A stretch of 64,000 bases of DNA, from NCBI GenBank assembly GCA_051313645.2, contig JBNRSN020000024.1, forward strand, positions 66,154,001-66,218,000, in the 5' to 3' direction. The translations under genes and the position numbers were made by a program. The notes under the pieces are model-generated. The model ran no database searches. It was not told the DNA's origin and saw only the letters and a program-made list of their open reading frames with translations. Numbering within the stretch: the stretch's first letter is position 1; each line of letters opens with the position of its first letter. Below are positions 1 through 58,505 of the stretch, piece by piece. This stretch comes from Centroscyllium fabricii. Its lineage: Eukaryota.

Positions 1-705
1 GGACGTGGACTAACTCTACCCGAGTTCTGGGAGCAACGGCCAGCGGCCTGGTTTATGTGCATCGAGACCAGCTGCCGCACACATGGCATCCAGGGGTACG
101 ACCGCTACGACCTGGTGTTCTCAGCCCTACCACAGACGACGATCGATCGGATGTGGTCAAAAATACAGCGTGTGCCCACCGCAGGCAGGTATGAATCACT
201 CAAGGCCGCGCTTATAAAAAAAATTACCCCCTCTCAATTTGAGCGCGACTGCCAGCTCCTCGACCTCCCCGAACTCGGGGACGCAGACCCATCGGACCTC
301 TTAGGTCAGATGCAAGCGCTCACACCCAACCCGGCCTCCCTCTTCCGCACCGTCTTCCTCCTTAAACTGCCCCGCGCCATCAGACCGGCCTTGGCGGCCC
401 TTGGCCAACGGAGCGATGACGAGCTCGGAGAGGAAGCCGACAGGCTCATGGAGGCGCAGCGCACCCGCTCAACCACTTGCGACCCTAACTCCGCATCGGT
501 AGAGCGCAGCCAATCACCCCCCAGGCATAACTTTACGCCTGAACCTAGGGCCCCGCGCCCACCTAGGCAACCGCGTCCCTCTAGCACCGGCTGGTGCTAC
601 TACCACACGCGGTTCGATCATAAAGCGCACCGCTGCGTCCAGCCATGCGCGTTCAAGCCACGGCCCAACTCAGCCCCCACCATGTCTGTAGGCCACAGGA
701 GCACT
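1..705 (+). CDS. gag: Gypsy Gag (5'-partial, frame 1)
   Basis: Frame 1 reads [22 protein letters not shown]... and [18 protein letters not shown] (C-X2-H-X9-C-X3-C). Confidence 0.85.
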
Positions 706-3700
706 GCTCTTTGCCACAGACAGCGGCACAGGCCTCAGGTTCCTCTGCGACACAGGCGCACAGCACAGCATCGTGCCAGCCTCCCCTGCAGAAACCAAAC
801 AAGGCACCCGGGGCCCGCCACTAGCGGCGGCCAACGGCTCCAATATAAAAACGTACGGCACCCGCAAGCTTACAATTACCCTTGCAAGCCACGCGTACAC
901 CTGGGATTTTGTAACGGCCCAGGTCACATCGCCCCTCCTCGGGGCAGATTTCCTCTGCGCCTACGGCCTACTGGTCGACTTAACCCGGCGCCGCTTGGTC
1001 AACATAAATACTATGACGACCATCCCATGCTCCACAGGGCCCGCACTCCTGGCCCACGCGGCAGCCCAATGCCGCTCCCGGGACTCCGATGCCTACGGCA
1101 CACTCCTGGCAGAGTTCCCCACCCTAACCAACCCCACGTTCACCACCCGCCAGGCCAAACACGGGGTGGAGCATTTTATTACGACCACAGGCCCTCCCGT
1201 CCATGCCCACGCCCGCAGGCTCGACCCGGCCAAGCAGGAGATAGCGCGCACCGAGTTCTGCACCATGGAGCAACTCGGTATAATCCGCCGCTCCAGCAGC
1301 CCCTGGTCCTCTCCGCTCCACATAGCCCCCAAGCCCGACGGAGGTTGGCGCCCCTGCGGCGACTACCGCCGCCTAAACAATGCCACCACCCCGGATAGGT
1401 ACCCCGTACCCCACATCCAGGATTTTTCCGCCAGATTAGCGGGCTGTACGATCTTTTCCAAGATCGACCTGGTGCGTGGCTACCACCAGGTGCCGGTACA
1501 CCCGGCGGACATTCCTAAAACGGCCATCATTACCCCCTTCGGGCTCTTCGAGTTCCTTAGGATGCCCTTCGGCCTTAAAAACGCGGCCCAGGCCTTCCAG
1601 CGCCTCATGGACTCAGTCCTACGGGACTTGAAGTTCATTTTCGTCTATTTAGACGACATCCTCGTGGCCAGCACCTCCCCCCAGGAACACCTCCTGCACC
1701 TCAGGACCCTGTTCCAGCGCCTTACCGAACACGGCCTTATCTTAAGCCCCACCAAGTGCAAATTCGGCCTCGAGACTATTGACTTCCTCGGCCACCGCAT
1801 TTCCCAAACAGGGGCCATACCCCTGCCCTCCAAGGTGCAGGCGGTACAGGAATTCCCCCGCCCGCACTCCATTAAAGGGCTGCAGGAATTCTTAGGCATG
1901 GTTAATTTTTATAACCGCTTTATCCCGGGAGCAGCCGCTCTCAAGGCCCCCTTATACCAGGCCACCCGCGGGCAGTCCAACAAGGCTGCGGTCGAGTGGA
2001 CGGCCGACGCCGCCACCGCCTTCACCGCAACTAAAACCGCCCTGGCAAACGCCACCCTCCTAGCCCACCCTAGGCCCAACGCCAGAGTAGCCCTCACCAC
2101 CGACGCCTCCGACCATGCGGTCGGGGCCATATTTGAGCAGTGGACCGGCAACTCGTGGCAGCCCCTGGCCTTTTTCAGCCGGCAACTCCGGCCCCCAGAG
2201 GTTAAATACAGCGCCTTCGATAGGGAGCTACTCGCTCTCCATCTGGCAGTGCGACACTTTCGTTTCCTCTTGGAGGGCCGCCACTTCACAGCCTTCAGCG
2301 ACCATAAGCCACTCACGTTTGCGATGGCTAAGGTCGCCGAACCCTGGTCGGCCAGGCAGCAGCGCCAACTCGCGGCCGTGTCGGAATTTACAACCGACAT
2401 CCAGCACATTTCCGGCCGCGACAACGTGGTCGCTGACTGCCTCTCACGCCCCACCATTAACGCCGCCCAAATGGCGGTCGATTACGCCCAGCTGGCCGCG
2501 GACCAGCTGGCCGACCCCGACCTGCTCAACGCAGCAGTTAATCTCCCCGGCCTCCACTTGGCCAATATCACGCACGGCCCCGCTGCCACCGTCGTCTGCT
2601 GCGACGTATCCTTGCCGCAACCCAGGCCAGTCGTACCCCACGCTTGGAGGCGACACATATTTAGGACCCTCCATGACCTGTCCCACCCCGGCGCCCGCGC
2701 GTCCATCAAATTAATCTCGGCCCAATTCGTATGGCGCGGCCTGCGCAAGGACGTCCGCGCCTGAGCCAGCTCCTGCATAGCCTGCCAGCGCTCCAAAGTA
2801 CACAAGCACATCAGGGCACCGCTGGAAACTTTTAAAGTGCCGGCCAGACGCTTTGACCACGTCCATATCGATCTCGTCGGGCCACTACCGCCATCCCGGG
2901 GCCACACGCACCTAATGACCATGGTCGACCGCAACACTCGCTGGCTAGAAGCAGTCCCTCTCACTGCCACCGGCACCACGGACTTGGCCAGGGCATTCAT
3001 CGCCACCTGGGTCGCCCGCTTCGGCGTGCCCACAGACATCACCTCCGACAGAGGACCCCAGTTTACGTCGGCATTATGGGCGGCCATCGCCCGCGACCTT
3101 GGGGTTACACTACACCGAACCACCGCATACCACCCACAGGCGAACGGCCTATGCGAACGGTTCCACCGCTCAATGAAGGCATCACTACGAGCCACACTAA
3201 AGGACGCATCGTGGACCGACCGCCTTCCATGGGTTCTCCTCGGGCTGCGCTCGGCAGTCAAGGAAGACCTAAACGCCTCGGCAGCAGAGCTCGTCTACGG
3301 CCAAACTTTAACGGTACCGGGCGAGTTCCTGGCTGAGCCCAACGCTCCCTGGTCAGCCGACCAGTATTTAAAAGACTTCGCCAACCCGGCACGAGCTTTC
3401 CAGCCACTACCAGTGGCCCGGCACAGAGAGCCGGCAGCTCGGGTGCTGGACGACATTAAAAAAGCTAAATTTGTGTTCGTCCGGCGCGACGGACACCGAT
3501 CTCCACTACAGCCACCGTACGATGGCCCCTACAGAGTGCTTCGGGCGGGAGCTAAAGCTTTTGAATTACAAATGGGCAACAGGACTGACACTGTGACAAT
3601 AGACCGGCTCAAGCCGGCGCACGTTATAGCGGGTGAGACAACGGTCCCCGCACAACCACCACAACGCGGTCGCCCTCCCGCAACAAAACACGCCCACACT

Positions 3701-3772
3701 CCACCGCAGAACCAGGAGCAACAGACAACATGGTCCGGCCGCATCATCCGGCCACCCCAACGGCACACATAG
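692..3772 (+). pseudogene. pol: Gypsy Pol (protease, RT, RNase H, integrase) with in-frame TGA at 2762-2764
   Basis: FLCDTGA protease; [18 protein letters not shown] and YLDD in RT; TDASD RNase H; HHCC zinc finger broken at DVRA*ASSCIACQ; integrase HIDLVG/SDRGPQF/GLCERF; GPY motif; TAG at 3770-3772. Confidence 0.93.
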
Positions 3773-7609: not shown

Positions 7610-8059
7610 TACCCCCAACACCGTGAGCTCTTGTGCAGTAACCTTTTATGTGGCACCCTATCAAAATCCAAATACACTACATCTACTAGTTCCCCTTGAT
7701 CCACTCTGCTCGTTACATCCTCAAAGAACTCTAAAAAAAAATGTCAAACACGATTTCCCTTTCATAAAACAATGTTGACTCTGCTTGATTGTATTATGCT
7801 TTTCTAAATGTCCCGCTACTGCTCCCTTAATAATGGATTCCAGCATTTTCCCAACAACAGATGTTAGGCTAACTGGCCTATAGTTTCCTGCTTTCTGTCT
7901 CCCTCCTTTCTTGAATTGGGGCGTTACATTTGCAGTTTTCCAATCAGCTTGGACCTTTCCAGAATCTAGGGTATTTTGGAAGATCACAACCAATGCATCC
8001 ACTATCTCTGCAGCCACCTCTTTTAAGACCCTCGGATGCAGGCCATCAGGTCCGGGGTA

Positions 8060-8365
8060 TACAGAAACACAGAAGATAGGAGCAGGAGTAGGCCATTCGG
8101 CCCTTCGAGCCTGCTCCGCCATTTTGATGAGATCATGGCTGATCATCCAAACCCAGCACCCCCTCCTACCCTCTCCCCATATCCCCCGACACCCCCAACT
8201 CTAAGAACTATATCTCACACACATACCCATGGGCAATTTTAGTATCTCCAATTCACCTAACCTGCATGTCTTTGGGTGCTGGGAGGAAACCGAGTACCCG
8301 GAGGAAACCCACACGAACACGGGGAGAACATGCAAACTCCACGCAGAGGTGTCCCGGGCCAAGCA
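8060..8365 (-). mobile_element. V-SINE (second subfamily), truncated, nested in CR1
   Basis: Reverse complement of 50281-50643; V-domain present. Confidence 0.85.
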
Positions 8366-15373: not shown

Positions 15374-16619
15374 TATAGAACATAGAACATACAGCACTGT
15401 ACAGGCTCTTGGGCCCTCAATGTAGTGCCGCCCTTATTCCGTCTCTGATTTTTCCTGTCCCCCCTACTGTTCCTTCCCTTCCATGTACCTGTCTATCATC
15501 CTTTTAAAAGCACCCAGACTGTCCGCATCCACTATTTCAGATGGTAGCCTATTCCATTCCCCGACCACTCTGTGTGAAGAACTTGCCCCTGCCATCCCGT
15601 CTGAATCTTCCTCCTTGAATCTTGTGCTCGTGTCCTCTTGTTGTCGTTCTTCCCGCCCGGGGAAACAGTCTTTGCACATTTACTCTGTCGATCCCCTTCA
15701 TCATTTTATACATCTCTATCAGGTCCCCCCTCTTCCTTCTTCGTTCCAGGGAGAAGAGTCCCAGTTCCCTTAACCGTTCCTCGTATGACTTTCCCCCCAT
15801 TCCCGGCAGCATCCTGGTGAATCTCCTCTGCACTCTTTCCAGTGCCTCCACATCCCTCCTGTAGTACGGTGCCCAGAACTGCACACAGTACTCCACGTGT
15901 GGTCTCACCAGTGACCTGTACAACTGCAGCATGACCTCCCGGTTCTTAAACTCTATTCCCCTGTTGATGAAGGCCAATACACCATAGGCCTTTTTTACTG
16001 CTTTGTCCACCTGGGTGGCAGCCTTCAGTGATCTGTGTACATATACTCCCAGATCCCTTTGCTCCTCTGCTTCACTCAGGATCCTGCCGTTGACCCTATA
16101 TTCCCTCTTCCTATTTGCCCTGCCGAAGTGCATCACCTCGCATTTCCCCGTGTTGAACTCCATTTGCCATTCTTCAGCCCAGCTCTGCATCCTGTCTATA
16201 TCCCTCTGAATCGTTCTACTCCCTTCCTCCTCATCCACTACTCCCCCAATCTTTGTGTCATCTGCAAATTTGCTGACCCACCCCTCAGCCCCCTCCTCCA
16301 AGTCATTGATGAAGATTACAAACAGTAGTGGCCCCAACACCGACCCCTGTGGTACCCCGCTGGTGACCGGTCTCCAGCTCGAGTATTGGCCTTCTACCAC
16401 TACCCTCTGCTTCCTCTGAGCCAGCCAGTTCTCAATCCATCCCACCACTTTGCTGCTTACCCCGCAACTCCTTACTTTCTTCATGAGCCGACCGTGCGGG
16501 ACCTTGTCGAACGCCTTGCTGAAGTCCATATATATGACATCAACCGCCTTTCCCTCGTCCACACTCTTGGTCACCTCTTCAAAGAATTCTATCAGGTTGG
16601 TCAGACACGATTTACCCTT
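15374..16619 (-). mobile_element. Young 5'-truncated CR1 LINE
   Basis: 341-aa uninterrupted RT ORF 15549-16574 ([23 protein letters not shown]); short tandem tail. Confidence 0.95.
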
Positions 16620-17493
16620 AGCTACTTATAAACTGCTGAGGTCAATTGAAGGGCAGGTGTAGCTGTGTGTAAATTCAGGCTTCAGGGTGAAGGTTGGCTT
16701 TCTTTCTGCTTATAAAAAAAATTGTTGTTTTGATCTGTAATGGTGTGCAATTCCTGGAGTGTGAATGCTGTGTGCGAGATGCCAGATTTTTCTGCACAAG
16801 ATAGACACAACTAGATATACAGACTTACAAGAGACACAATGAAGGCTGCATGACCTGGTTTTGAGAAGGATTTGAATTTGAAATACTACAGCTCATGTCA
16901 GTGCAGTAGTATTGATCATGGCACAGCATTGTTACAATCACAGCAAAGTACACAAACAGATCATCAATGGCTTATAATGCAAAGTTACTGCAGCTACACA
17001 ATATGGAAAATTGCCTGCACATAAAGTTCAAAAACAATGGTGCTATTACTGGACTTAATCAACTAATCTTGCAGGCAACCAAAAAAATATATGGGCATGT
17101 TAAGACTTTTATATAACTGGTGTTAAAAGCCAAATAAAATATTTACTTTGGAGCTCAGTACGGATTACCACGAGGCAGTTCAGACTCCAGCATCTATTAA
17201 ATTAGTGTCATTAGTTTTAATCAATTGAATTTTAAGAAATCATCTTAAATGACACGTACCAAGGTTTTCAAAGACAGTAATCTTATTACTACAAATACAG
17301 CTATCTCAACATTTAGCATCTTCAAAAATGTACAAATACTATTGAAAGATTATGCAGTGCATTTTAGGATAATCTGTTTAAACACTCAGGATTAGAGACA
17401 AACCTTCATCCACTGACAAGTATTTCTGGCAGTTGTTTATAATTCAGAAACATCTGTTTCTATACAAATCTCAAGACTTCAAATGTGTACTCA

Positions 17494-30496: not shown

Positions 30497-31376
30497 CAGG
30501 TTGAGCACCGTTAATCGGGCACAGGCGGGACCAGGCCCGTGCCGGGAAATGGAAAAAACCGGGAGAACGAGTTTGGACACTGCGCATGCGCGCAACTTTG
30601 ATATTGGCTGGCGCGCGCATGCGCAGATCGTCCAATATTGGCCGCCGCGAAGTTTTTTGATGGGCTCAGGCTTTTGTGGCGTTCCGTTTAGGTTTTAGGA
30701 CTGTCGGGCAGCAGTGAAAGGCCGGTCTTGCGGGGGGAGGCAGGAGGGTGGCGCGGGTCGGGGGCGGGGAAGGAGGGTGGTGCGGGTCGGGGGGGGGGGG
30801 GAAGGAGGAAGGCGCGGGTCGGGTCGGGGGGGGGGGGAAAAGGAGGGTGGCGCGGGTCAGCGGGGGGGCAATTTATCCAATCCCCTGTTTTGCTTTCAAT
30901 TGTAAGAGGTCACACGGCGCCAGGCTGTGGTCCAACGGTTTTAGTTGGGGTCACGGGCTTTCGGAGCGCCGCTTCCCCGTCAGGTGATGGGGGAGCGGCG
31001 CTCCGAAGGCCCGTGATTTCGAGTGGGACTTTTGGACTACAGCCTGGTGCTGTGTGGCTTCTTACAATTGTCCATCCCAGTCCAACACCAGCACCTCCAC
31101 ATCATGGCTTCAATTACAGTTATCGATAAAATAACCGGCGGCCGTATTGAATTATCTGCGCATGCGCTAACCTTCCGGCGACGCATGCGCAGATCATTCA
31201 AAACACCCGCAGCTGTTTTGAATGATCTGCGCATGCGCTCGGCGCATGCGCAGATCATTCGTTGAAGCCACGATGGCGGCTGCCATTTTGCGCACGCGCA
31301 GTGCAGTCGGGGCAATTTGTGCTGGCAGACTGAAGCTGCCGGCTATTCGGTTACCGGATTAACGGTGCTCAACCTG
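30497..31376. mobile_element. Tigger/pogo-type MITE carrying a G-rich repeat (30731-30870) and a nested PLE hairpin
   Basis: TIR CAGGTTGAGCACCGTTAATC; TA TSD. Confidence 0.9.
30898..31107 (+). mobile_element. Palindromic mini-PLE (family 1), A-to-G hypermutated copy
   Basis: Aligns end to end with the 41953-42173 and 54298-54625 copies; short TSD TTCAATT. Confidence 0.85.
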
Positions 31377-39920: not shown

Positions 39921-41352
39921 ACATAACATAAGAAATAGGAGCAGGAGGAGGCCAATCGGCCCCTCGAGCCTGCTCCGCCATTCAATAAGATCATGGCTGA
40001 TCCGATCCTAACAACCAACCTACTATCACAGAAGCATCTCCTGCATCTAACAGAATTAGACACACGAAATAGGAGCAGGATCAGGCTACACGGTCCCTGG
40101 GCCCGCTCCACTACCCACAGGGCAATGACCGATCTGAACCTAGACTCATGTCCAAATTCCTGCCCGCTCCCCGTAACTCTTACTACTAGGAAACTGTCTA
40201 TTTCTGTTTTAAATTTATGTAATGATGTAGCTTCTACAGCTTTTTGGGGCAGCATGTTCCATGGACCTACCATCCTCTGAGTGAAGTAGTTTCTCCTCAT
40301 CTCAGAGCAGCCCCTTATTCTAAATTTATGCCCCCTAGTTCTAGTTTCACCCATCATTGGGAACATCTTCCCCGCATCCACCCGATCCAACCCCTTCACA
40401 ATCTTATATGTTTCAATAAGATCTCCCCTCATTCTTCTGAACTCCAATGAGCAGAGTCCCAATCTACTCAACCTCTCCTCATATGTCCAACCCCTCATCC
40501 CTGAGATTAACCGAGTGAACCTTCTTTGTACTGACTCAAGAGAGAGTATGTCCTTTCTTAAGTATGGACACCAAAACTGTATGCAGTATTCCAGGTGCGG
40601 TCTCACCAATACCTTGTACAACTGAAGCAATACCTCCCTGTTTTATATTCTATACACCTAGCAATGAAAGCCAACATTCCATTGGCCTTCTTAATCACTT
40701 GCTGCACCTGCATACTAACCTTTTGAGTTCCGTGCACCAGGACCCCCAGATCCCTGTGTCCTACAGTACTTTCCAGTTTCTTGCCATTAAGATAATAATC
40801 CGATCTACGATTTTTCCTGCCAAAGTGCATAACCTCACACTTTCCAGTATTGCACTCCATCTGCCAAATCTCTGCCCACTGACTTAGCCTGTCTATGTCC
40901 CCTTGCCGGTTCTTTACGTCCTCCTCATTCACCACTTTCCCTCCCATCTTGGTATCATCTGCAAACTTTGATATGTTACACTCGGTCCCCTCCTCCAAAT
41001 CGTTAATATAAATTGTAAAGAGTTGGGGACCCAGCACTGACCCCTGCGGAACACCACTAGTTACCGATTGCCAGTCTGAGAGTGAACCATTTATCCCAAC
41101 TCTCTGCCTTCTGTTAGATAGCCATTCCTCTATCCATGCCAGAATATTACCCCCAATTCCGTAATTTTTTATTTTAAGCAATAATCTTTTGTGTGGCACC
41201 TTGTCAAATGCCTTTTGAAAGTCTAAATACACTGCATCTACTGGTTCCCCTTTATCCACCCTATATGTTACTTCCTCAAAGAACTCCAACAAATTTGTCA
41301 AACAAGACTTCCCCTTCATAAAACCATGCTGACTTTGTCCTATTAAATTATT
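39921..41352 (-). mobile_element. CR1 RT and 3' end with a duplicated tail
   Basis: ORFs 40603-41319 and 39848-40630 with RT motifs. Confidence 0.93.
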
Positions 41353-42037
41353 GCTTCATTTCTACTTTAGCCTTCCTCCTTTTTTTCCCAGATCTTTCAG
41401 CTCTACTGTCAATTATAAGTAGCTTTTGTGACATCACCACCTGCTACTACTTTTAACCATGAGCACTTTATGGTTCTACGTTATTTTTAAACTTCACTCT
41501 TCCACTGTGTAAAACGGCTGAAATCAAAACCACGCTGTTACTTTTACCTCGACAAAATTAAGTTTTCAAACAAATTATTTGCTTAATAAAAATGTGATCT
41601 GAAATGATATAGCGTAACACAACAGTTTAAAAAACCACATTTATACCTGAACCAATTGGACAAAGAGTACATTCAGCTTGGCTCCCTTCCTCAGTCAGCT
41701 TACTGGAGATTGTGCCAAAATCACGCCTCTGTGCACTCACTTATTAGCTACTCAACCACGTACTGGTAATTTGTTTTATCATTTTTGCCACAAGACGAGC
41801 TTCTGATTTTAGCCACAGCATCCAACGGTGGTGCTGCAGGAGTCAGATGTTGTCCCACAGGGAGGGTAGTTTTTTTTAAAAAGTCAGACATGAAGCCTAA
41901 TCAAGCCAATCCTACACAGCAAGCAGCTGTTCGATAACAATGTGAACCAAGATGTGGAGGTGCCGGTGTTGGACTGGGGTGGACAATTGTAAGAAGTCAC
42001 ACAACACCAGATTATAGTCCGACAGTTTTATTTGAAA

Positions 42038-42074
42038 TCACAAGCTTTCGGAGCGCAGCTCCTTCCTCAGGTGA
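42038..42074 (-). ncRNA. Minimal type I hammerhead ribozyme motif
   Basis: UCAC-CUGAGGA-A-GGAGC-UGC-GCUCC-GAAA-GC-UU-GUGA. Confidence 0.75.
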
Positions 42075-42085
42075 AGTGACGAGAT

Positions 42086-42123
42086 TCACCTGACGAAGGG
42101 GCAGAAGCTCCGAAAGCTTGTGA
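42086..42123 (+). ncRNA. Minimal type I hammerhead ribozyme motif
   Basis: UCAC-CUGACGA-A-GGGGC-AGAA-GCUCC-GAAA-GC-UU-GUGA. Confidence 0.75.
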
Positions 42124-42411
42124 TTTCAAATAAAACTGTTGGACTATAATCTGGTGTTGTGTGACTTCTTACAAATGTAAACCAAGACCATGGAGCAATT
42201 TGCCTACCCACTCAAGGGTGTAGTGGAGGGTGCACTTGGGTAGAGTATCTCCTCCAAATAAGAAGTGGGTAACATCCCGATTCCAAAATCACAAGACAGC
42301 AAATTACATAGGGTAAGACAATATAAGCAGCTACCTTCTGTGGAGATTATATAGTCCTGTGGAAGTAATGAAGATCTGTTTTTTGCAATGCATTATTCTA
42401 TTGTAGGTGTG

Positions 42412-52813: not shown

Positions 52814-54138
52814 GGAAAATGCTGCGGATGCTGGAAATCTGAAATAACAACAGAAAACGCTGGAGAAACTCAGCAGGCCAGGCACAGAGTTAACGTTTCA
52901 GTCGATGACCTTTCTTCAAAACTGGAGAAGCCGTGAGGGGGGATAGATTTTAAAGCTTGTGGGGGCTGGGGAAAGGGGGGGGGGGGGGGGGGAGGCTGAA
53001 AGAAGAAAGGAAAGATCAGCGACAGGCTGTAAGGCGGGGGAAAGATAAGAGATATTCGGAGAAATTGAAGGAACACAGGATGGCTCTGAATAGGTGTGAA
53101 CAGCTCTAGCAGAGTAAAGGGAAAAAAAGCCCCTCCCTCCCGGAACCATGAGCGAGTTCCCCTTGTCCTCACCTATCACCCCACCAGCCTCCACATTCAA
53201 TGGATCATCCTCCGCCATTTCTGCCACCTCCAGCGTGATCCCACCACCAAATGCATCTTCCCATCACCTCCCCTTTCCCCATTCTGTAGGGACCGCTCCC
53301 TCCGCGACACCCTTGTCCACTCCTCTACCACCCCCAGCACCCCTTCCCCCGGCATCTTCCCGTGCAAGCGCAGGAGATGCAACACCTGCCCTTATACCTC
53401 CCCCTTATCCAGGGTCCCAAACACCCCTTCCAGGTGAAACAGCGATTTACCTGTACTTCCTGCAATTTAGTATACTGTATTCGCTGCTCACGATGTGGTC
53501 TCCTCTACATCGGGGAGACCAAACGCAGATTGAGTGACCGCTTTGCGGAACACCTCCATTCAGTCCGTAAGGGGCACCCTGAGCTCCCGGTGGCCTGTCA
53601 CTTTAATTCTCCATTCCACTCCCATTAAGACCTCACTGTCTGTGGCCTGCTGCACTGTTCCACAGAAACCCAGCGTAAACTCGAGGAACAGCACCTCATC
53701 TTTCGCTTAGGCACTCTACAGCCCTCTGGACTAAACCTAGAGTTCAACAATTTTAGATCATAACCTTGGCCCCTACCACACTTTTTTTTAACAGATATAT
53801 ATTTTCTCTTCTTTCAATCCACACTTTTGTCTGGCTTTTTTTTTCTTTACTCTGCTAAAGCTGTTCACACCTATCCAGAGCCATCCTGTGTTCCTTCAAT
53901 TTCTCTGAATATCTCTTACCTTCCCCGCCTTCCAGCCTGTCACTGATCTTTCCTTTGTTCTTTCAGCCCCCCCCCCCCCTCCTCCTTTCCCCAGCCCCTA
54001 CAAGCTTTAAAATCTATCCCCCCTCCTGGCTTCTCCAGTTTTGAAGAAAGGTCATCGACCTGAAACATCAACTCTGTTCCTCTCTCCACCGATGCTGCCT
54101 GGCCTGCTGAGTTTCTCCAGCGTTTTCTGTTGTTATTT
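52814..54138. mobile_element. Penelope-like element with inverted pLTRs and a GIY-YIG fragment
   Basis: 52814-53128 is inverted relative to ~53840-54138; LVYCIRCSRCGLLYIGETKRRLSDRFAEH; imperfect 15-bp TSD. Confidence 0.9.
54037..54073 (+). ncRNA. Hammerhead-like motif, U3 variant
   Basis: AGUU-UUGAAGA-A-AGGUC-AUC-GACCU-GAAA-CA-UC-AACU. Confidence 0.55.
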
Positions 54139-54297
54139 CACCAAAACAGATTATCTGGTAATTATCACATTGCTGTTTGTGGGAGTTTGCCGCGTTTCCT
54201 ACATTACAACAGTAACTACACTTCAAAAGTACTTAATTGGCTGTTAAGTATTACACAGAATCTGGTCATTTAGAAATTACACAAACATGGATAACAA

Positions 54298-54625
54298 TTG
54301 CAAGAAGTCACACAACACCAGATTATAGTCCAACAGTTTTATTTTAAATCACAAGCTTTCGGAGCGTTCGCACCTTCGTCAGGTGGAAAGAGAGACTGAC
54401 CTAAAGAAAACACATGTCGGAGGAAGGGAGAAATCCGATGTGGGAGAGATCGGATTTCTCCCTTCCTCCGACATGTGTTTTCTTTAGGTCAGTCTCTCTT
54501 ACCACCTGACGAAGGGGCGAACGCTCCGAAAGCTTGTGATTTAAAATAAAACTGTTGGACTATAACCTGGTGTTGTGTGACTTCTTGCAATTGTCCACCC
54601 CAGTCCAACACCGGCACCTCCACAT
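54298..54625 (+). mobile_element. Palindromic mini-PLE (family 1), 146-bp arms
   Basis: Arms 54294-54439 and 54449-54594; tail to 54625; perfect TSD CATGGATAACAA. Confidence 0.9.
54503..54537 (+). ncRNA. Minimal type I hammerhead ribozyme motif (mirror copy on - strand at 54351-54385)
   Basis: CAC-CUGACGA-A-GGGGCG-AA-CGCUCC-GAAA-GC-UU-GUG. Confidence 0.75.
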
Positions 54626-54999
54626 CATGGATAACAACGTGGGTTTTGTCTGAATATAACACTATGTAATTTAATCAAATGAAAAACAGAAATTTAAGTA
54701 TAAACTCCTGCTACACAAGATCTAAGAGTGCTTCTAACGGCATTGCAGATATTTTGTAATCTGTTATTCAGCACTAACAGCACATTCATATCCCAAAGCA
54801 ATCATTTAGGAGCACAGGAACGGGGGGCAGCCATTGGGCATTTCTTGCCTTTTCTCTATATCCCTTTCCTTTCAAACACGTTAATTAATCTCGATCTATA
54901 AACTTCTGGGGCAGTTTCACATTCTTACTACCTCTTGTATACTAAGTTTTACCTGATTTTATTTTAGTGGTTTAGCTCAAATTCTAAGTTTATGTTCTG

Positions 55000-56085
55000 G
55001 ATTTCCCTACCAGAACAAAGAGCCATTGCCCATCTACCGGGTCAATTTACCTTAAATATCTTGATCAGATCACTTAACCTGATCATCTACAGGGAATTTA
55101 ACCAAATTTCACCAGTCTCATCACAACTCAGACCCTTCACCCTAGATATCATCCTGATGAGTTGTTGTTGGACTTTCTCCAAGGCCAAAACATCTTTTTG
55201 AAGATAGGATATCCAAAACTGCCACAATATTGTAAATGAGACTTGATCACTCTGCTCTGTAAACTGCAGTAGCACTTCCTTTATTTTATAATCTATAGAG
55301 AGTCATACCTCTTTGATAAGGCAACACATTTCTTTATGATCACTTTTTATACCTGCAAGCTAGCTTTTAATGATCTGAATGCCTAAATCCCTTTGTTCAT
55401 TTAACCCAACCCTGAGCGCTTCCCCATTTAGATTGTCCTCCCATCTGCTCAACAAGATATATTTCTGGAGAGAAAACAATTTGAAAGATATGGCGGGCAG
55501 GTAGGTATGCAAGATCGATCAAAAGAGGCTAGCTTATCTGACCTAATGACTTTTTTCCCCGTTTCCAAATATTTTGCTTTCATGCAATTTCACAGTGATG
55601 CTTCCCTTGAGGAAAATAGAGAACGGTACTGGCAACAGTTAAGGAGATAACCTTAATATTAACGGTCCTACCCTTCCAGTTGTTCTCCATGGAGCAGAGA
55701 AGGCTAAGAGGAGATTTAATAGAGGTGTTTAAAATCATGAAGGATTTAGAGTAAATATAGAGAAACTGTTTCCAATGGCTGAAGGGTCGATAACGAGAGG
55801 GCACAGATTGAAGGTGATTGGCAAAAGAACCAGAGGCGACATGAGGAAAATACTTTATGGAACGAGTGGTTAAGATCTGGAATGCACTGCCTGATAGGCG
55901 ACAATTAAATCTGTATCCACCGCCCTTCGAAAGGGAATTGGATAAATACTTGAAGGAGAAAAAATTGCTGGGATACGGGGACGGAGTGGGACTGACTGGA
56001 TTCCTCTTGGAAAGAGCCGACGCAGACTCGATGGGCTGAATGGCCTCCTTCTGTGCTGCACTATTCCAAGATATGATTCGATGAT
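55000..56085. mobile_element. Two old CR1 fragments (- at ~55000-55450; + at ~55680-56085)
   Basis: QFWISYLQKDVLALEKVQ; RVVKIWNALP. Confidence 0.7.
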
Positions 56086-56157: not shown

Positions 56158-57768
56158 GAATCATAGAATCATAGAAGATAGGAGCAGGAGTAGGCCATTC
56201 AGCCCTTCGAACCTGCTCCGCCATTCAATGAGATCATGGCTGATCTTTAGCAAGCTAGTACCCCGTCCCCGCCTTTTCTCCGTAACCTTTAATCCCTTTA
56301 GCTTGAAGAAATATATCTAATTCCCTCTTGAATATGTTTAATGAACTGGCCTCCACCGCCCTCTGTGGCAAGGAATTCCACAGGCCCACCACTCTCTGAG
56401 TGAAGAAATTCTTCCTCATGTCTGTCCTAAATGGCTTACCCCTTATTCTTAGACCGTGGCCCCTGGCTCTGGACTCCCCCGCCATTGGAAACATTCTCTC
56501 TGAATCTAACCTGTCCAGACCTTTCAGAATTTTATACGTCTCAATGAGATCGCCTCTCAATCTTCTAAACTCCAACGAGTACAAGCCCAGACTACATAAT
56601 CTCTCCTCGTAGGTCATTCCTGCCATTCCAGGAATCAGCCTGGTGAAACACCGCTGCACTCCTTCCATGGCAAGAACATCCTTCCTCAGGCGAGGCGACC
56701 AGAACTGTACACAATACTCAAGGTGTGGTCTCACCAGTGCCTTGTACCGCTGCAGTAAGGTATCCTTATTCCTATACTCGAACCCTCTTGATATGAAGGC
56801 CAACATACCATTTGCCTTCCTAACCGCCTGCTGCACCTGCGTGCTCGCCTTCAGCGACTGGTGCACAAGAACACCCAGGTCTCTTTGCACCTCCCCATCT
56901 CCCAATCTATTGCCATTTAAGTAATAATCTACCCTCCTGTTTTTGCCCCCAAAGTGGATAACCTCACATTTATCCACATTATAGTGCATCTGCCATCTAT
57001 CTGCCCAGTCCCCCAACTTATCCAAATCGCCCTGTAACTTCCTGACACCCTCTTCAGAGCCCGCCCCCCCCCTCCTAGTTTGGTGTCATCCGCGAATTTG
57101 GAGATATTACATTCAATTCCCTGATCCAGATCATTAATATATATTGTAAACAGCTGGGGTCCCAGGACAGACCCCTGCGGTACCCCACTAGTCACCGGCT
57201 GCCACTCAGAAAACGAGCCGTTAATTCCAACTCTCTGTTTTCTATCTGCCAACCAGTTCTCTATCCACATCAAAACTTTGCCCCCAATCCCATGAGCCTT
57301 AATTTTACATGCTAATCTTTTATGTGGAACCTTATCGAAGGCTTTCTGGAAGTCAAGGTACACCGCATCTACTGGCTCTCCCCCATCTATTTTCCGAGTT
57401 ACTTCCTCAAAGAATTCCAATAGATTAGTTAAACACGATTTACCTTTTGTAAATCCATGTTGACTCTGTCCGATCTCATCCCTAATTGTCAAATGCTCCG
57501 AGATTACATCCTTGATAATGGACTCGAGCATTTTGCCCACTACTGATGTAAGGCTTACTGGTCTATAATTCCCTGCTTTCTCTCTGCCCCCCTTTTTAAA
57601 TAGTGGGGTAACATTAGCCACCCTCCAATCCGTGGGTACTGATCCAGAGTCTATCGAGTTCTGGAAAATGATCCTTAAAGCACCCGCTATTTCCAGGGCC
57701 ACCTCTTTAAGTACCCCAGGATGTAGATTATCAGGCCCTGGGGATTTGTCGGCCTTCAATCCCTTCAA
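56158..57768 (-). mobile_element. Young CR1 RT and 3' end
   Basis: Near-intact RT ORFs; single frameshift at a C-run near 57060-57075. Confidence 0.95.
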
Positions 57769-58505
57769 CTTGGGGAAAGAAAGACAGGAGCAAGAGAAAT
57801 AATTGGAAAAGGAAATAAAAAAGCAAAACCATGGTTCCAAACAAAAGAAAATTCCTAACTCCTCTCTTTTCCAATTCTGAAGAACTGTCAGAAATATAAA
57901 GCAGAGACAGACCCTCACCAGGGACAGACTAAGTGACCACCAGTTGGCAGTCGAAAAAGGAAGACAGAAGAAATCCTGGCAGCCAAGAGAAAATAAAATA
58001 CGCGGTCACTGTTTGACAGATGAGGTTGAAACAGAGGTGCACTTCCTCCTAAAATGCAAAAGATTCGACAAAACAAGGAAAACATACTTTGACAAATTAA
58101 GCTTGGCAATCCCAGATTTCAAAGAACTAGATGATATATCAAAACTAAGAACAATCCTTGGCGAGGGAAATAGGGCACAGCTTGGTGCACAATATGTAAC
58201 AGCATGCCACAACCTGAGAGATAGTGAATGACCAACATGCACACACGCACGCACACACAAACAGAGACTAATCAACACTAATTATTATACCGTTTGTAAC
58301 TGCAAGAACGTGTAGCAACCGATAAAAGGTTACAGATGTATTGTGTGTATATATATATATATGTACAGGGGCATATCTGCCCATACATTGTATACCTGTA
58401 TCTGTATCTATGCATTTTAACTATGTATGTTATGTTTTATACTTTGGCAACATAGGGATGTATCCTGTCATGCCAATAAAGTTTTTAAATTGAAATTGAA
58501 ATTGA
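57769..58505 (+). mobile_element. RTEX-like LINE 3' fragment
   Basis: [13 protein letters not shown]...HC..EVETEVHFLLKC; AATAAA followed by (AAATTG)n tail. Confidence 0.65.

Follow-up and report, generated by a model that had tools for sequence, protein, structure and literature searches.

A palindromic hairpin derived from a Penelope-like element and its likely origin in a single twin-priming event

The window, by which we mean the whole 64,000-nt stretch of DNA that was analysed, contains the pol frames of an LTR-type retroelement (protease, RT, RNase H and integrase; 692-3772, plus strand) and further RT fragments at 7721-8200, 15549-16625, 40603-41355 and 56929-58005. The long frames scanned (45/68) held only retroelement domains and no host gene, in a scan that would miss short exons. 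A GIY-YIG fragment on the plus strand (53290-53625; Pfam E 5e-5) is probably the 3′ end of an older Penelope-like element (PLE), and about 700 bp downstream of it lies the hairpin at 54286-54637.

The hairpin has two arms of 146 nt each (54294-54439 and 54449-54594) that are complementary at 143/146 positions, the mismatched pairs being 54322/54566, 54372/54516 and 54387/54501. The arms are separated by 9 nt, followed by 31 unpaired nt and framed by a perfect 12-nt direct repeat (Table 1), and a reading-frame check of the element found no ATG ORF of more than 31 aa. An earlier note on this DNA had listed the arms, the 9-nt loop, the ~31-nt tail, the 12-bp TSD and the lack of an ORF, and all of these are present in the sequence. 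We found that the loop is no spacer: it consists of sense pLTR sequence and forms part of the tailed arm. Element and TSD share bases at both outer boundaries, 4 nt (ACAA) at the left one and 5 nt (CATGG, which is the parent's C-ATG-G) at the right. Contigs from two samples of organism A, one of them possibly the assembly's own source, cover the right junction (54605-55400) with zero differences, indicating that this junction is not an assembly artefact. In addition, the alignment of a contig of organism C begins exactly at 54626 and runs to the right; the 48 letters that this contig has before that point are consistent with an empty site.

Table 1 Features of the hairpin element (positions in the window)
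Position	Strand	Feature	Remark
54286..54297	.	Left TSD, 12 nt	Last 4 nt also start the tail-less arm
54294..54439	-	Tail-less arm, 5′-truncated pLTR copy	3′ end at start site B
54350..54385	-	Putative minimal type I hammerhead motif	Stem II with private U.U mismatch; anatomy as in PMC4209133
54353/54352	-	Predicted cut of the minus-strand motif	
54437..54439	.	GAT, common to both arms	3-nt microhomology joining the arms
54437..54630	+	Tailed arm, 5′-truncated pLTR copy	Ends at start site A (parent ORF's ATG)
54440..54448	+	9-nt 'loop', sense pLTR	Tailed arm's excess length over the other arm
54503..54538	+	Putative minimal type I hammerhead motif	
54503..54505, 54536..54538	+	Stem I of the plus motif	
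54506..54512	+	Core of the plus motif	
54513	+	Extra A	
54514..54527	+	Stem II	
54528..54531	+	GAAA	
54530..54535	+	Palindrome AAGCTT	Predicted cut after 54535
54595..54625	+	31-nt PLE tail	Between the two start sites, directly 5′ of the parent's start codon
54626..54637	.	Right TSD, 12 nt	First 5 nt also found in parent RNA, spanning the ATG

When the genome was searched with the hairpin apex, a parent was found in the same genome (L031), a 3.3-kb PLE with a 221-bp pLTR, a second pLTR 3,041 nt on and a long ORF interrupted by a single stop. The ORF contains RVT_1, a DKG motif, a CX4CX2C linker (CHSNLCKTC) and a GIY-YIG-type C terminus. The last was read from the sequence (VVY..C..C..YIG), Pfam giving L031 itself no GIY-YIG score, and homologues of L031 carry PF00078, some of them also PF01541. 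The nearest named homologues were shark proteins (79-92% identical), and a PDB sequence search with the RT-EN piece returned 0 matches. According to PMC8557442, a CX2-5CxxC linker between RT and EN marks Neptune/Nematis and not Penelope/Poseidon; by this linker motif alone L031 would be of Neptune/Nematis type. The tailed arm is identical to the 5′ pLTR of L031 at 191/194 positions and the tail-less arm at 144/146, bearing out the pLTR origin that had been proposed for the hairpin (98-99% for both arms). The tail corresponds to the 31 nt before the ATG, and in an alignment this ATG falls on residue 1 of an 881-aa, full-length homologue. The tailed arm therefore ends at the ATG (site A), and the 3′ end of the tail-less arm lies ~31 nt before the tail end (site B). 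As in EN+ PLEs, the parent has one ORF, with RT followed by a C-terminal GIY-YIG, between pLTRs, and the insertion has an inverted 5′-truncated pLTR, a tail in the 30-40 nt range at one end and a TSD. The layout of an inverted pLTR plus a pLTR with tail, also anticipated earlier, thus matches the layout published for PLEs (PMC8557442, PMC3846280). In the genome, 80,738 exact matches were found to a 23-mer from the tail and 534 to a subfamily 23-mer from the arm. The locus is an ordinary one, since this shark-type genome contains >80,000 tailed ends of the PLE family. None of 124 scored copies had a stop-free ORF of ~890 aa, the longest open frame being 836 aa, so an active master today is without support.

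The CUGACGA/stem II/GAAA core that the earlier note had seen in each arm was confirmed at 54506 (+) and 54382 (-). After each core come a single additional A, stem II, GAAA, GCUU and a stem I of 3 bp, and a private G>U change in the minus-strand motif creates the mismatch in its stem II. CUGANGA, the extra nucleotide, G10.1-C11.1 in stem II, GAAA, the palindromic stem III, NUH and the short stem I were all found, which at the level of sequence agrees with the minimal type I hammerhead of PLEs that had been put forward. Rfam gave no hammerhead at the gathering score in the window and none at E<=10 on the right arm, where it returned three chance matches only (E 2-8), and the ribozyme call therefore rests on motif anatomy. 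GCTT is kept in 218/223 matched arms, a count from a search pattern that itself demanded most of the core, and stem II in these arms alternates G.U and A-U between two main haplotypes. The hammerhead fold was predicted to lie +6.7 (plus) and +8.8 (minus) kcal/mol above the best fold of a lone arm, and the palindrome duplex was predicted to contribute only -4.3 kcal/mol. A transcript of the full element was predicted to form a single hairpin of ~-270 kcal/mol that buries both cores; a search for expression listed no RNA data with the element. The suggestion that the antisense arm switches cleavage off is thus in line with predicted thermodynamics, but no 'on' state is evident for such a switch, because the long hairpin buries the cores and a lone arm disfavours the hammerhead by 7-9 kcal/mol. 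In PMC4209133 a single motif is reported to show no cleavage and dimers to cleave at a low level. The two motifs are probably passengers, carried along because of their position 55-95 nt upstream of site B. Their role would be in the tandem transcript of the parent, as dimers or with protein help, and not in the stub.

Two other hairpins of the family are present in the window. One (41952-42178, tail on the minus strand) has its apex at the hammerhead's 5′ edge, and its arms carry the CUGACGA/GGGGC and CUGAGGA/GGAGC stem-II haplotypes, respectively, pointing to two templates or to later conversion. The other (30897-31102) has arms 76-84% identical to the family, both differing from it by many T>C and A>G-type changes, and could be an older copy or one that underwent GC-biased change.

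We then considered whether the hairpin moves as a unit. The earlier note had read it as a retrozyme-like, MITE-mimicking retroposon whose antisense arm could silence the ribozyme, and had named identical junctions at several loci as the mark of movement as a unit. Spelled out, this would be a non-autonomous hairpin that is transcribed and re-inserted whole. The 35-nt junction of the element has 2 exact copies in the 7.2 Gb genome, and in the second one (L003) the loop is reversed relative to the tail, so that the census proposed in the note goes against movement as a unit. A gapped-pattern search found 75 hairpins with their apex in the same 30-nt window; details were listed for 50, and among these 50 there were 41 distinct junctions. 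A mobile unit would account for the presence of 75 hairpins of roughly the element's size, for a read-through RNA that is predicted to hide both cores in one long hairpin, and for the recurrence of some junctions, one of which was seen six times, two others twice each and one three times among the 50 listed. The recurrent junctions, however, fall at the best microhomologies: the commonest, at a near-palindromic 7-mer, is shared by three subfamily backgrounds and is seen with the loop facing either way. The sole triplicated junction (L058-L060; G000:C1:331925351-331930606) lies within 5 kb, in both orientations, in a short-unit tandem repeat, as in local amplification along with the host tandem repeat. 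Furthermore, outer ends vary between copies, and the three arm changes of the element are minority or private ones, 111/117 other arms having the majority state. Arm length in two-armed copies varies continuously from 13 to 2,153 nt, with the window's element at the short end. The stub also lacks the ORF-start sequence, which would be needed for RNA binding if the anole protein described in PMC11167929 is a guide. The many copies of fixed structure with fixed ends that define a MITE were not found. Non-LTR retrozymes (PMC7229834; bioRxiv 10.64898/2026.07.22.740005) share with the element a non-coding, pLTR-related body and a type I hammerhead, but they are described as head-to-tail tandems of hammerhead units, mostly canonical hammerheads, that amplify as a family, whereas the element is a single head-to-head unit and unamplified. 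With 41 junctions among the 50 listed hairpins and variable outer ends, we regard a mobile hairpin as highly improbable.

To see how such copies end, we surveyed 76 loci in genome order, drawn from 94 of the first 100 of the 534 matches. They comprised 31 simple two-armed copies, 3 two-armed copies with complex interiors, 29 single-armed copies and 13 complex, incomplete or internally starting loci that stand outside the 31 and the 29. In all 31 simple two-armed copies one end was tailed (A) and the other tail-less (B), with one A end cut short at +18 and one B end at -19, and the outer ends of the 3 copies with complex interiors were also A and B. Among the 50 hairpins listed, 46 had exactly one tail, one (L090) had tails on both arms and 3, representing one event, had none. 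Four loci (L048, L068, L085 and L095) carry short deletions within the tail, between repeated CCA(C) words. Single-armed copies ended at A in 18/29 cases and at B in 11/29, demonstrating that both sites serve as ends; if the ends were chosen independently at these frequencies, mixed pairs would make up at most half of the two-armed copies.

Among the 50 listed hairpins, 38 had an exact TSD of at least 8 nt, and in 35 of these its length was 12-14 nt. The mean overlap between TSD and element was 1.7 nt at the A end and 2.1 nt at the B end, the latter too high because of a small number of calls that tolerate mismatches (6-8 nt), compared to 0.72 under a blunt-join null, and the overlaps sit at both 3′ ends expected from a 12-nt staggered cut. 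Single-armed loci showed a duplication of 10-15 nt in only 12/29 cases, with approximate boundaries, compared to one of at least 11 nt at 30/34 two-armed loci, and single-armed events may trim the unprimed end. The possibility that the palindrome arose from two separate insertions and later recombination, or from an assembly fold-back, was weighed against these data. The family is dense, as the number of tail matches indicates, and palindromes can trouble assemblers, but a single TSD encloses both arms, the same architecture was found, with a TSD of at least 11 nt, at 30/34 two-armed loci, the arms differ by three separate substitutions and the right junction recurs in the contigs of two samples. 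An origin of this kind is barely credible.

A more serious alternative is fold-back self-priming, in which one cDNA (or an antisense RNA, as in the account given in PMC3846280) folds onto itself at a short palindrome and serves as its own template, the tail-less end being the point where the self-copy joins the target. The hairpin at 54286-54637, taken alone, also fits this model, its tailed arm being the longer one and its loop orientation and 3-nt GAT/ATC junction being compatible with snap-back of a tailed cDNA, and junction palindromes are indeed read as self-priming in PMC3846280. The survey is harder to reconcile with it. The tail-less arm was the longer one in 22 of the 50 hairpins listed (up to 2,009 nt vs 730), the tailed arm in 13, with 9 equal and 6 unpolarised, and copying a tailed cDNA cannot yield a longer tail-less arm. 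The 9 hairpins with equal arms, several of which have palindromic centres, fit fold-back. Site B, in contrast, is also the end of 11 single-armed copies, and at two loci (L064 and 41952-42178 of the window) the arms carry differing common stem-II haplotypes, one per arm. Junctions were blunt in 16 of the 50 hairpins and had extra or unassigned bases in 13, results that also led us to reject junction microhomology as a general rule. At six loci the true junction overlap is 3, a value of 14 being an artefact of mismatch tolerance. Arms diverged by 1.3% within a locus and by 7.4% between loci, a likeness that twin priming and fold-back predict equally.

One locus, L100 (4009-4680; G000:C1:3043408-3044079), carries the same unique join in both arms, as fold-back would have it. 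It is two-armed with a 12-nt TSD, and each arm contains one blunt join of ORF +167 to pLTR -158 (relative to site B), which genome-wide was found at L100 alone; a mobile mini-family built on this join was rejected for the same reason. One arm overruns the point where it began, as if its template were a 325-nt RNA that was closed or end-joined, and the shared join fits either two rounds of copying of one RNA or the copying of one arm from the other. The join position (-158/-159) is also where the tailed arm of the window's element starts. Taken with the survey, these observations leave fold-back an unlikely origin.

Arm lengths were examined in the 31 simple two-armed copies. Their correlation was weak (Spearman 0.27, p 0.14); lengths agreed within 20% in 9/31 copies vs 4.8 expected (p 0.03) and within 30 nt in 5 vs 2.7 expected (p 0.12), so that equal-length arms are at most a weak sign of a shared RNA end. 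The first 25-nt bin held 14/94 arm ends vs 42/467 arm-bins afterwards (p 0.09), and a fixed 5′ stop near the element's apex, such as a transcription start, was not established.

Strict pairing of a tailed with a tail-less end, 12-14 nt TSDs, microhomology at both ends and the fact that either arm can be the longer fit twin priming. Together with the parentage, the one-off junction, the 12-bp duplication and the arm ends at A and ~31 nt earlier at B, which can be read off directly, they lead us to conclude, with a probability of about three in four, that the hairpin consists of two 5′-truncated, head-to-head pLTR copies of an RT + GIY-YIG PLE of the same genome, likely made in one twin-priming event and likely immobile on its own. 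In the mechanism that we infer, the element's endonuclease would nick both strands ~12 nt apart, and each 3′ end would pair with a few bases of the RNA (5 nt at site A and 4 nt at site B) and prime a cDNA. Each cDNA would end prematurely and independently of the other, in the present case ~150-160 nt upstream of site B, and the far ends of the two would be joined through the 3-nt microhomology, second strands being filled in by repair. Twin priming was reportedly described for L1 by Ostertag and Kazazian in 2001; there the second target end is said to prime another cDNA, so that an inversion results within one TSD. The two L1 parts are said to copy different stretches of RNA, whereas in the window's element the same stretch would be copied from sites 31 nt apart, resulting in a palindrome.

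A wider reading, which we hold tentatively and at rather less than even odds, is that PLE insertion is an obligately asymmetric form of twin priming, in which one RNP hands A and B to opposite nicked strands and the RNA is copied twice. Such an RNP would probably contain a protein dimer, the RNA would not be removed by RNase H, and a leading and a displacing RT would copy the same RNA, sometimes closed or end-joined (compare L100). If this is true, the tail, the inverted pLTR and the fixed 12-nt duplication are the signature of one reaction, and asymmetric twin priming replaces the antisense self-priming model. PMC8557442 calls the mechanism of PLE insertion undefined. The value of the locus and its relatives lies in data on this process, namely the 31/31 pairing, the 12-14 nt duplications and the two-ended microhomology, patterns that yield predictions for a direct test in the PLE system already available in vitro. 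In annotation, hairpins of this type belong with truncated PLE insertions and not with MITEs or retrozymes. A literature search of titles and the starts of abstracts, with few subscription papers, found no account of twin priming applied to PLE inversions and nothing on point for palindromic non-autonomous shark PLEs.

The anatomy itself, an inverted pLTR, a one-sided tail and a TSD with hammerheads on opposite strands, is already published for PLEs, and the layout in PMC8557442 includes a one-sided tail of 30-40 nt. The closest likeness is Pen2a_Av (PMC3846280; Fig. 2 legend of PMC8557442), which has a head-to-head inverted 5′-truncated pLTR within one TSD and, as in the window's element, a 31-bp tail on one side only (PMC3846280). 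Compared to the rotifer examples in these two papers, the arms of the element are too short for any ORF, and the TSDs of its family are longer (12-14 bp vs 8-10 bp). The hammerheads have the core, the extra nucleotide between A9 and stem II, G10.1-C11.1 and the palindromic 15.2-16.2 as in PMC4209133, which describes the extra base after A9 and the palindrome for metazoan PLE hammerheads and already records paired motifs that lie on opposite strands at distances of 100-700 bp. Within that set, the 3-bp stem I and 5-bp stem II seen here, with the cleavage triplet CUU, stand at the short end. For the anole PLE protein in vitro, PMC11167929 reports that both strands are cut and extended, that two internal start sites bound the tail, that a protein dimer is predicted and that the hammerhead is dispensable for insertion and cleaves only with protein. 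The window's family resembles this element, Poseidon_Ac, in having two internal start sites that bound the tail. It differs in carrying a Neptune/Nematis linker, Poseidon_Ac belonging to the Poseidon clade, and in start sites that flank the ATG, whereas those of Poseidon_Ac lie 111-118 nt inside the ORF. The start sites in vitro are reported to be used without strand bias and without homology to the primer (PMC11167929), whereas the genomic copies studied here show strict pairing of one A with one B end and microhomology to the primer.
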